Source: Candidatus Aenigmatarchaeota archaeon
GTDB lineage: Archaea; Aenigmatarchaeota; Aenigmatarchaeia; GW2011-AR5
DNA: 64,000 nucleotides
Direction of reading: 5' to 3'
Assembly: GCA_016187335.1 (NCBI GenBank)
Contig: JACPJW010000001.1
Span: forward strand, 416,001-480,000
Shown here: piece after piece, positions 16,997 to 49,564 of the stretch
Numbering within the stretch: the stretch's first letter is position 1
How the letters are laid out: every line of letters starts with the position of its first letter
Made by a program: the position numbers and the translations under genes
Notes under the pieces: model-generated
The model's database searches: none
What the model saw: the letters and a program-made list of their open reading frames with translations, nothing else
What the model was told of the DNA's origin: nothing

Positions 16997-17109
16997 GGGC
17001 TTGTAGTCTAGAGACCCTTTAGAAAAAGCGTCTACGAAAAGGGTTGGAAAATGGTTATGACGTCGCCTTCACACGGCGAAGGTCGGCGGTTCGAATCCGC
17101 CCGAGCCCA
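16997..17109 (+). tRNA. tRNA-Val(CAC) with one D-loop intron (16/17: 17013-17050)
   Basis: GGGCTTG/CGAGCCC + A73; TCGCC-TT CAC AC-GGCGA; GGCGG-TTCGAAT-CCGCC; BHB central helix TCTA/TGGA, outer helix ACCCTTT/AAAGGGT. Confidence 0.93.
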
Positions 17110-39397: not shown

Positions 39398-39661
39398 GCG
39401 CCCGTAGCTCAGCTTGGCAAACTTTGCTACTCCAAAGTTTGATCAAAAGAGGTCTGTGACGAAGTTTGAGCAAATAGAGCACTTCTCTCCTAGAGGTGAA
39501 TTGAGCGCAACGGAAGACTGAAGTTTCTGAAGAAACTTCAGCCGGTTTTGTGCGATGATAATTTCCTGAAGTGAGGAAGGGGCCGCGCGTTCGAATGCAC
39601 CCTTTCTTGGAAAGAAAGCGTGCACGGAAAGAAAAGGGTGCCGAATATCGCGCCGGGCGCG
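39398..39661 (+). tRNA. tRNA-Arg(CCU) with three introns (19/20: 39418-39473; 37/38: 39493-39573; 59/60: 39596-39647)
   Basis: GCGCCCG/CGGGCGC + G73; spliced D-loop AGCTTGGATA; CTTCT-CT CCT AA-GGAAG; GCGCG-TTCGAAT-CGCGC. BHB central helices GCTT/GAGC, CTCC/GAAG (one mismatch), TTCG/CGAA. Confidence 0.92.
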
Positions 39662-44573: not shown

Positions 44574-44678
44574 GCCGGCGTCGCATAATCTGGTGGTGCA
44601 CTGATTGCATGCGAAGCAAGTGTATGTCTCGAAAACCAGCGGGCTCTGCCCATGCAGGTTCAAATCCTGCCGCCGGCG
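44574..44678 (+). tRNA. tRNA-Ser(CGA) with one anticodon-stem intron (29/30: 44604-44625)
   Basis: GCCGGCG/CGCCGGC + G73; CTG|GT-CT CGA AA-ACCAG; long variable arm GGGC-TCT-GCCC; BHB GCAC/GTGT, outer helix TTGC/GCAA. Confidence 0.92.
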
Positions 44679-47928: not shown

Positions 47929-48411
47929 ATGTTCTTCAAAAAGAAAGACAATTACGAGGAAATAAAGCGCGCCGTTGAAGAGCCTGTTTCTTCCGAGCCG
48001 ACATTGCAGGACCTGGAAATAGAGGACCTGCCGCCGGAAATGCGCTACGACAAGAATTATGCGGAGCCCCGGGACAGCGCGCCTCTTTTCGTCAAGGTGG
48101 AGAAGTACAAGGAACTGATAGGCCTCATACAGGAAATGCGGGCATTTACAAACGGATTGAAGCAGACGTTTTCTGTGATACACGAGTCTGATGCGCTGCG
48201 CAACGATGCCGTTAAAATCATGCGCACGACGGTCCAGCGGCTGGACAAGACCTTGGCAGAAATTGACAGCGAGCTGGTAAGGCCGCGCGGCATTGACATG
48301 GAAAAGCCGCCTTACGCCGGCAGCGAAATGAAATACATTGAAGGATCGCTGTCAGAATTGCAGCGCCATTTGGCTGTTTTGCGCAAGGATCTGCAGGAAA
48401 TGAAGGAATGA
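47929..48411 (+). CDS. Hypothetical coiled-coil protein
   Basis: APLFVKVEKYKE motif followed by heptads; family not confidently named. Confidence 0.7.
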   Translation: MFFKKKDNYEEIKRAVEEPVSSEPTLQDLEIEDLPPEMRYDKNYAEPRDSAPLFVKVEKYKELIGLIQEMRAFTNGLKQTFSVIHESDALRNDAVKIMRTTVQRLDKTLAEIDSELVRPRGIDMEKPPYAGSEMKYIEGSLSELQRHLAVLRKDLQEMKE

Positions 48412-48460
48412 TCAGGTTATCTGGTTCTTAAATATTTCATCAAAAATTACTACATTCAGT

Positions 48461-48732
48461 GCGGCCGTCGCCAAGAGGCCCTTTTTAGAAAAAAGCGTCT
48501 ACGGAAAAACTAAAAAGCGTCTGGAAATCTGGTCAAAGGCGCGGGTTTCACTTGAGTGTTGATGCGCAAGCAGGTGAAAGCGTAACTCAAGGCAGCTGAC
48601 GAGGCTGACGCACTTCGTGCGTCATGCTGTTTGATATCCCGTCGGTTAGTCCGTTCGGCGGTTCGAATGCACCCTTTCTTAGAAAGAAAGCGTGCACGGA
48701 AAGAAATGGTGCCGAAAATCCGCCCGGCCGCA
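48461..48732 (+). tRNA. tRNA-Leu(CAA) with four introns (15/16: 48476-48527; 30/31: 48546-48584; 37/38: 48592-48635; 59/60: 48668-48718)
   Basis: GCGGCCG/CGGCCGC + A73; spliced D arm GCCAAG|TCTGGTCAAAGGC; CGGG|A-CT CAA G|A-TCCCG; variable arm CGG-TTAGT-CCG; GGCGG-TTCGAA|T-CCGCC. The first three BHBs are relaxed (mismatched central helix); the third junction could shift by 1 nt. Confidence 0.87.
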
Positions 48733-48790
48733 TTTATTCAATTTTCGCTTCACCAAAACCCTTAAAACCGCTCACTTTAAAGTAGCAACC

Positions 48791-49564
48791 ATGGATGAGT
48801 ACCTGCTGACAGTGGGCATCGGCGTATTGATTCTTGCGCTCCTGCTGCTGATAACGAATGCCCAGTTCATAACCGGCGCCGCCCCTTCAAGGCAGCTTGT
48901 CCCGGCTACGAGCGTTTTTGACCTTGGCAGTTTCAGCTCAACCTTCGTCAAGGAAACGAAAACTTATGATTTGGGCAGCAAGGAAGTGTCTAATGGTGTT
49001 TTGTTTGGCGAAAACAAGCTGGAGTTCCACGCAGAAGCGCCTGAGATCGAATCAGCACTGGTAAAATTCCGTGTCGCGCGCATGAATGACCTGGGACCTC
49101 TTTTCGTGAAGTACAACGGCGACGTCGTTGAAAAAAAGCGCTACGCTGCGGGGGATTATGCCGTAAGAGTGCCAAAAGAAATGCTTAACGAATCAAGCAC
49201 CATTGAAATGTCTGCTTCATCATCGCTTTGGCAGTTCTGGGCGCCCAATATCTACAGCCTCAGGAATATAAATCTTATAGTGAAATCCTTTGATTTCAGC
49301 CCCGCGGAGCTTAACTTCACGCTTGGCGAGGAATACACAACGCTGAAGCAGGGAAGGATTGAGTTCAGCTTAGAAGAAAACACTGGAAGAATGGCTGTTG
49401 TTCTCAACGGGAAAGAAATCATGAATGATTTTGCGCGCAACGAGCAGTCCGTGCCATTCAGCAAAGAGGAAGCGAGAGCAGGGGAAAACAAAATAAGGAT
49501 TGTGCCGCTGCAGGGCTCGCGCTTCAGCGGAACTGCGCATGTTGTCGTGTTTTGGGAGAAATAG
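48791..49564 (+). CDS. Membrane-anchored beta-rich surface protein (start re-placed at ATG 48791)
   Basis: N-terminal TM LLTVGIGVLILALLLLI; the ORF-track extension overlaps tRNA-Leu. Confidence 0.7.
   Translation: MDEYLLTVGIGVLILALLLLITNAQFITGAAPSRQLVPATSVFDLGSFSSTFVKETKTYDLGSKEVSNGVLFGENKLEFHAEAPEIESALVKFRVARMNDLGPLFVKYNGDVVEKKRYAAGDYAVRVPKEMLNESSTIEMSASSSLWQFWAPNIYSLRNINLIVKSFDFSPAELNFTLGEEYTTLKQGRIEFSLEENTGRMAVVLNGKEIMNDFARNEQSVPFSKEEARAGENKIRIVPLQGSRFSGTAHVVVFWEK

Follow-up and report, generated by a model that had tools for sequence, protein, structure and literature searches.

The window, a contiguous stretch of 64,000 nt from the genome (G000) of a groundwater Aenigmarchaeote, harbors a leucine tRNA gene of 272 nt (48461-48732, +) that consists of five exons and four introns. 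In all likelihood it is a functional, single-copy tRNA-Leu(CAA) gene, the transcript of which would be cut by EndA at four BHB-type motifs and joined by RtcB. Spliced alignment of the deduced mature sequence against the window gave intron lengths of 52, 39, 44 and 51 nt, so that 186 of the 272 nt (68%) are intronic, and placed the insertions at 15/16, 30/31, 37/38 and 59/60 in standard numbering; the last could equally be set anywhere from 58/59 to 60/61 with the product unchanged, and BHB geometry favors 59/60. A sequence-only reading of the window had proposed the same tRNA identity, the same four introns and the same sites in three arms (one in the D arm, two in the anticodon arm and one in the T arm); the alignment reproduced the lengths and recovered the same coordinates, and the identity agrees with that of 30 orthologs.

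Followed from its 5′ end, exon 1 (48461-48475) comprises the 5′ strand of the acceptor stem, positions 8-9, the 5′ strand of the D stem and the D loop to G15. Intron 1 (48476-48527), of relaxed hBH type and recognized from the BHB test, an ortholog and a paralog, separates it from exon 2 (48528-48545), which holds the remainder of the D loop with GG18-19, the 3′ strand of the D stem, G26 and positions 27-30 of the anticodon stem. Intron 2 (48546-48584), of relaxed hBHBh' type, is backed by the BHB test and by orthologs and is followed by a micro-exon of only 7 nt (exon 3, ACTCAAG, 48585-48591) that runs from A31 to G37 and includes the anticodon CAA. Intron 3 (48592-48635) lies at the canonical 37/38 site, to which the BHB test and the conservation of A38 assign it, and exon 4 (48636-48667) supplies A38, the 3′ strand of the anticodon stem, the long variable arm, the 5′ strand of the T stem and the T loop to A59. 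Finally, intron 4 (48668-48718), a strict hBHBh' intron with all 10 tested pairs, precedes exon 5 (48719-48732), made up of T60, the 3′ strands of the T and acceptor stems and the discriminator A; the CCA end is not encoded. Since the inserts measure only 39-52 nt, group I and group II introns were set aside, and there is no sign of a split or permuted tRNA gene, as the five exons are colinear, on one strand and within 272 nt.

When all four introns are removed, the resulting 86-nt sequence (plus CCA) is called tRNA-Leu(caa) by ARAGORN with all stems intact. In the predicted cloverleaf the 7-bp acceptor stem is perfect, the D stem has 3 bp, with GG in the D loop, and the anticodon stem (CGGGA/TCCCG) and T stem (GGCGG/CCGCC) have 5 bp each. 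It carries the features of a class II tRNA-Leu, namely a 15-nt variable arm whose stem is 3 bp long, A73 (48732) and the anticodon CAA. The Leu-type D arm, paired anticodon stem and long variable arm foreseen in the sequence-only reading can all be seen in this cloverleaf. ARAGORN detected no tRNA in the unspliced 272 nt, nor anywhere in the whole window, and Rfam returned no match in 48350-48850, even at E≤10, with only two tRNAs elsewhere in the window. The gene sits in a 380-nt gap between a 160-aa ORF (end 48411) and the next gene. Approximately 24-33 nt upstream of the mature 5′ end, on the same strand, we read a TATA-like box (TTAAATATTT, 48428-48437), a putative promoter element; similar A/T boxes, equally far from the gene, precede tRNA-Ser(CGA) and one more tRNA gene in this genome. 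The discriminator is immediately followed by a T-rich stretch (TTTATT..ATTTT, 48733-48745, +) that is likely to act as an archaeal termination signal.

Orthologs were sought in 41 relatives and then in 150 genomes of the class, with recovery by spliced alignment, and 30 orthologous Leu(CAA) genes encoding the same mature tRNA were obtained from the same class. The anticodon CAA and A38 are present in 31/31 genes (the window gene and the 30 orthologs), as are canonical pairs at all 7 acceptor and all 5 T-stem positions, most of which occur as several pair types, and the anticodon stem alternates between CGGGA/TCCCG and CAAGA/TCTTG. The long variable arm, the discriminator A and the Leu anticodon are identical in the orthologs. 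This pattern points to purifying selection on the spliced product, and the recovery of 30 orthologs that share the mature sequence and show compensated stem changes excludes a chance origin of the gene; that independently defined intron boundaries resemble BHB motifs is a further argument against chance.

The intron load of the orthologs ranges from 0 (L043) to 3, and each of the four sites is filled in some and empty in others. An intron of 77 nt fills 15/16 in G012; 30/31 is filled in 13 further distinct orthologous genes, 37/38 in most orthologs and 59/60 in G017, G028, G025 and G052. The 7-nt micro-exon between the 30/31 and 37/38 introns recurs in about ten orthologs. It should be kept in mind that the automated spliced aligner puts the 30/31 intron of orthologs at 25/26, and counts were corrected by eye where stated. 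The 30/31 and 37/38 introns are probably old in the clade, and the 15/16 and 59/60 introns look like later additions, since they are built on a small hairpin module that is repeated in many tRNA introns of this genome and its relatives. No Leu(CAA) ortholog was found in the same-genus genome G001 (56% complete). As a separate observation, the 59/60 intron of ortholog L030 (1380-1500, -; genome G043) has a length of ~100 nt, within which a ~45-nt unit (GGGGCTGTTCAAAACATGCAACCCCTTATCAAC) is duplicated in tandem.

The splice motifs were assessed under a geometry in which the cut falls after nucleotide 2 of each 3-nt bulge and the central helix is formed between exon positions i-5..i-2 and intron positions j-5..j-2. 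This geometry was checked on tRNA-Ser(CGA) (44574-44678, +), for which the right product was obtained, by removal of a 22-nt 29/30 intron, only with this geometry; the latter gene is itself an example of a tRNA gene with a single non-canonical intron, of hBH type. A permissive BHB scan yielded hundreds of chance motifs and, being uninformative alone, was replaced by a test against a null in which each intron was scored, after removal of the remaining introns, at the boundaries that the mature sequence dictates. The score is the number of paired positions in the central (4), outer (3) and inner (3) helices. Intron 4 reached 10/10 (central 4/4, outer 3/3, inner 3/3; null 3.5e-5), intron 2 reached 8/10 (3/4, 2/3 and 3/3; null 0.85%), intron 3 likewise 8/10 (2/4, 3/3 and 3/3; null 0.85%) and intron 1, the 5′ half of which is well formed, reached 6/10 (3/4, 0/3 and 3/3), a total found at 13% in the null; a central helix of at least 3 pairs together with a full inner helix, as in intron 1, has a null frequency of 0.9%. 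Only intron 4 has a strict BHB; the motifs of introns 1, 2 and 3 are relaxed, those of introns 2 and 3 with correct spacing. In the tRNA-Leu(UAA) gene of the same genome, located outside the window (G000:C2:161412-161673, +), the same four sites are occupied by introns of 52, 30, 44 and 52 nt, which score 9, 9, 9 and 10 of 10 in the BHB test; after splicing, ARAGORN identifies tRNA-Leu(taa).

The boundaries of intron 2 were drawn with the help of the orthologs. The register with the best pairing, which is also thermodynamically best (48545-48585), was dropped because it deletes G30 and A31, both of which are conserved and uninterrupted in orthologs. All orthologous 30/31 introns share the 3′ end (T)GCG-NA↓ (the arrow marks the boundary), and in several the central helix with positions 25-28 is complete, at 4 bp; the working register was fixed on these two grounds and thus owes its support to ortholog homology, not to the window sequence alone. 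In this register the central helix pairs positions 25-28 with AGCG, including one G.A mismatch, and the inner helix is TTCAC/GTGAA. In intron 3 the outer helix is the anticodon stem itself and the inner helix is CAGC/GCTG. Since intron 2 splits the anticodon stem, the score of intron 3, 8/10 in the spliced context, is 6/10 with intron 2 still present.

If these motifs are used as predicted, transcription would generate a precursor of ~272 nt, in which EndA would cleave eight phosphodiester bonds at the 15/16, 30/31, 37/38 and 59/60 motifs, RtcB would ligate the five exons, one of them just 7 nt long, and CCA would be added after exon joining. As the outer helix of intron 3 is split by intron 2, we infer that intron 2 would be removed before intron 3, an order that would also avoid free release of the 7-nt exon.

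It is improbable, in our estimation, that the gene is real and spliced in a different manner, with intron 3 excised in the register 48593-48636, leaving G38, or with intron 1 or 3 processed by another route or with a helper factor. The shifted register has a perfect 4-bp central helix, compared with 2/4 pairs in the canonical one, but it lacks flanking helices, moves T39 into the bulge so that the 31-39 pair is broken, and produces G38 where A38 is invariant in 31/31 genes. We therefore judged it less likely and kept intron 3 at 37/38, flagging the ambiguity of its register. Intron 1 has no outer helix, which would also suit an unconventional route, but its architecture (a central helix that uses positions 11-13 of the D stem, is mismatched at position 10 and is followed by the boundary AA↓T) recurs in the 15/16 intron of L007/G012 and in the Leu(UAA) paralog, and its inner helix covaries, as its sequence differs in both the G012 ortholog and the paralog. 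The 3′ boundary TGGAAA↓T is common to the 15/16 introns of the window gene and of L007/G012. The last point on which a different mode of splicing can draw is a conserved TTGAGT element in intron 2, whose pairing with the anticodon-loop exon has no place in a standard BHB. That the locus is a decaying relic or pseudogene, UUG being read by tRNA-Leu(UAA) instead, would accord with the degenerate central helix of intron 3, the mismatch in that of intron 2 and the absence of any score from standard tRNA finders at the locus, but is most improbable given the five intact stems of the spliced product (the 7-bp acceptor and the 5-bp anticodon and T stems being perfect), the conservation of all exons with compensatory changes relative to the orthologs, the perfect BHB of intron 4, the promoter-like and terminator-like signals that flank the gene, the failure to find a second Leu(CAA) gene in the assembly and the equal invisibility of most tRNA genes of G000 to standard finders. 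Excision of all four introns at the predicted BHB-type motifs is hence the reading that we retain.

The TTGAGT element (48552-48557, +) is complementary to the ACTCAA of exon 3. TTGAG is found in 13/14 distinct 30/31 introns of Leu(CAA) orthologs, compared with an expectation of ~0.04 per intron; besides the window gene, TTGAG(T) is carried by L007, L008, L011-L013, L015-L017, L019, L020, L035 and L039, and it lies directly after the 5′ strand of the inner helix of these introns. RNAfold pairs TTGAGT with exon 3, a pairing that is pseudoknotted relative to the BHB and incompatible with the full inner helix, and BHB conformers were absent from the minimum-free-energy folds of the precursor. The element may serve as a guide, as an anti-misfolding element or as a switch of splicing order.

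Comparison of the two leucine genes of G000 revealed that the mature tRNAs are identical at 63/86 positions (73%), whereas introns 1 and 4 are more alike between the two genes than the exons are, with 42/52 (81%) and 48/52 (92%) identical positions, respectively; the corresponding figures are 18/39 for intron 2 and 27/44 for intron 3. Introns 1 and 4 of the window gene share a repeated module, CCCTTT(T/C)TT..AAAGCGT..ACGGAAA, which takes the form CCCTTTTT-AGA-AAAAAG-CGTCTACGGAAAAA in intron 1 (48479-48509) and CCCTTTCTT-AGA-AAGAAAG-CGTGCACGGAAAGAAA in intron 4 (48672-48706). BLAST of the two introns gave ~30 matches across the genome. Over 39 nt, intron 4 matches the 59/60 intron of a different tRNA (window 39596-39634) at 97% identity, a further copy of the module lies in an intron upstream of a tRNA fragment at 17010-17040, and the module is also present in D-loop, 37/38 and 59/60 introns of orthologs. 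The hairpin GACGCAC-TTCG-GTGCGTC of intron 3 (48607-48624) is a second small repeated module of tRNA introns, with copies of 92-100% identity over 19-27 nt at G000:C2:821379-821405 and G000:C1:32898-32921 and in G002, G024 and G027; G002 has five copies, and another is contained in the 30/31 intron of ortholog L013.

The genome as a whole (1.01 Mb, 47% GC, 90.8% estimated completeness) contains only 12 Rfam tRNAs above threshold, as compared with 42 in the same-class relative G103, from which it follows that most tRNA genes of G000 must be disrupted. The suggestion made in the sequence-only reading, that the genome be checked for another tRNA-Leu(CAA) gene, was followed, and a second copy was found neither by BLAST with the mature sequence, nor with a regular expression for an intact anticodon arm, nor by a template scan of the 30% of G000 that lies outside long ORFs; the assembly is 90.8% complete. 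For a census of the other genes, 41 tRNAs of G103 served as templates for a spliced scan of this non-ORF portion, and products accepted by ARAGORN were kept. This gave 32 tRNA loci with ~69 introns, or ~2.2 per gene, figures that are partly curated and in which some counts are aligner artefacts; two of the 32 loci are without an intron, so that ~94% of the recovered genes are interrupted. The artefacts arise because the aligner invents introns where acceptor stems differ from those of the template, and tRNA-Arg(UCU) (C2:401772-401953), with four introns called by the aligner of which two are real, was rejected as a four-intron gene. Another four-intron candidate, outside the window, is tRNA-Ala(UGC) (G000:C2:236556-236856, -), which has the G3:U70 pair; it would contain two D-loop introns leaving a 5-nt exon (GAACG), one intron at 37/38 and one T-loop intron of 101 nt. 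A homologue of the T-loop intron is found in tRNA-Phe(GAA) (C2:411912-412149).

Both splicing enzymes are encoded in the genome. The single EndA homolog (202 aa, single-unit; G000:C2:410505-411113, -) lies ~5 kb upstream of the window, scores 97 bits to PF01974 and has as its best PDB matches the alpha4 EndA of M. jannaschii (1a79, 6e-33) and the catalytic subunit of N. equitans (3iey_A, 4e-31). A 187-aa ORF located just upstream of it on the same strand had no PDB match. One match to PF01139 (528 bits) represents the RtcB ligase. Between the catalytic Tyr and His, the EndA carries a Lys-rich insertion of 5-6 residues, KKG(P/K)xS, which aligns gap-free with the EndA alpha of N. equitans and is absent from M. 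jannaschii EndA. Among the loop-bearing EndA types of broad substrate range in Kaneta et al. 2018, the catalytic unit has an L1/CSL, L2/ASL or L3 insertion. These authors reported the 'L3' loop in DPANN alpha-type EndAs, where it is associated with increased tRNA gene disruption, and, going by the description in that paper, the insertion is probably this loop.

With regard to known systems, the older literature (reviews and the ARMAN paper, PMC3239211) allows archaeal tRNA genes between one and three introns at most. The sequence-only reading had left it unconfirmed whether four have been described, and recent work on Asgard archaea shows that they have: in Valentin-Alvarado et al. 2024, Supplementary Data 4 provides for a fourth intron in its columns and lists a tRNA-Lys(TTT) of Atabeyarchaeia with four introns by tRNAscan-SE and three by R2DT (PMC11291895), and a 2026 preprint describes a single Asgard tRNA gene interrupted by as many as five intervening sequences (bioRxiv 10.64898/2026.10.13.758758). 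Four introns per archaeal tRNA gene are thus recorded but not widely known, and are no longer unprecedented. For Aenigmarchaeota, Micrarchaeota or other DPANN we found no literature report of four-intron tRNA genes, and the gene is of note for its lineage, for the near-record fragmentation in combination with a different type of endonuclease, and for the natural series of orthologs.

The closest parallel is provided by the Asgard lineages Atabeyarchaeia, Freyarchaeia and Jordiarchaeaceae (PMC11291895, 10.64898/2026.10.13.758758), which likewise carry BHB-type introns in canonical as well as non-canonical positions, the D arm among them, with more than half of their genes multi-intron and many missed by standard annotation. 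In the most interrupted Asgard families the average is 2.20 introns per gene (10.64898/2026.10.13.758758), and our rough census value of ~2.2 is of the same order. The present genome differs in belonging to the DPANN superphylum, in the small dispersed hairpin modules that underlie three of the four introns and in its EndA, a single alpha-type unit with what is probably a DPANN-type C-terminal loop insertion, whereas Asgard and TACK EndAs have their own conserved loop. The Thermoproteales (Thermofilum, Pyrobaculum, Caldivirga) also have multi-intron tRNA genes, interrupted for instance at 30/31 and 59/60, and relaxed hBH/HBh' motifs (Sugahara et al. 2008 and Fujishima et al. 2010, cited in PMC3239211 and PMC4090602), as well as near-identical introns at different tRNA sites, read there as intron transposition (PMC3239211, PMC4090602). 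They differ in a stated maximum of three introns, in a heterotetrameric (alpha-beta)2 EndA with a Crenarchaea-specific loop and in being hyperthermophilic Crenarchaeota. ARMAN-2 (Ca. Micrarchaeum acidiphilum; Fujishima et al. 2011, PMC3239211) is, like the present organism, an ultrasmall DPANN archaeon with a ~1-Mb genome, in which 56% of tRNA genes are disrupted, 59/60 introns and two-intron genes occur and manual tRNA discovery was needed. Its EndA is, however, the three-unit epsilon2 form (4fz2), unlike the single-unit enzyme here, and the intron load here is higher, with ~94% of the recovered genes interrupted and up to four introns in a gene.

Taking these observations together, we tentatively offer a broader reading, which as a whole we regard as possible and rather doubtful. 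It would see in this organism a member of an Aenigmarchaeote family with an intron load as heavy as that of the record Asgard lineages (~2 per gene), handled by a DPANN-type EndA, with four introns in two or more genes, probably in three, and with micro-exons of 5-7 nt. The intron sets would have been assembled from small mobile hairpin modules landing at the same sites in different tRNAs, and the TTGAGT of the ancient 30/31 intron would be an anti-anticodon-loop guide that holds or presents the 7-nt exon and imposes the splicing order. If true, such a guide-type element would be undescribed for BHB introns.

For the biology of these archaea, the gene extends extreme tRNA-gene fragmentation beyond Thermoproteales and Asgard to the ultrasmall DPANN archaea, whose splicing endonuclease is of a different type. 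To decode UUG, this organism most likely has to make eight accurate cuts and four ligations. Because genes of this kind are invisible to ARAGORN and Rfam, the tRNA complements of such genomes are badly under-annotated, which affects completeness estimates as well as inferences on codon usage and genetic code. Together, the locus, its paralog and 30 orthologs carrying 0-3 introns constitute a natural series for BHB intron gain and for the recognition of relaxed motifs.
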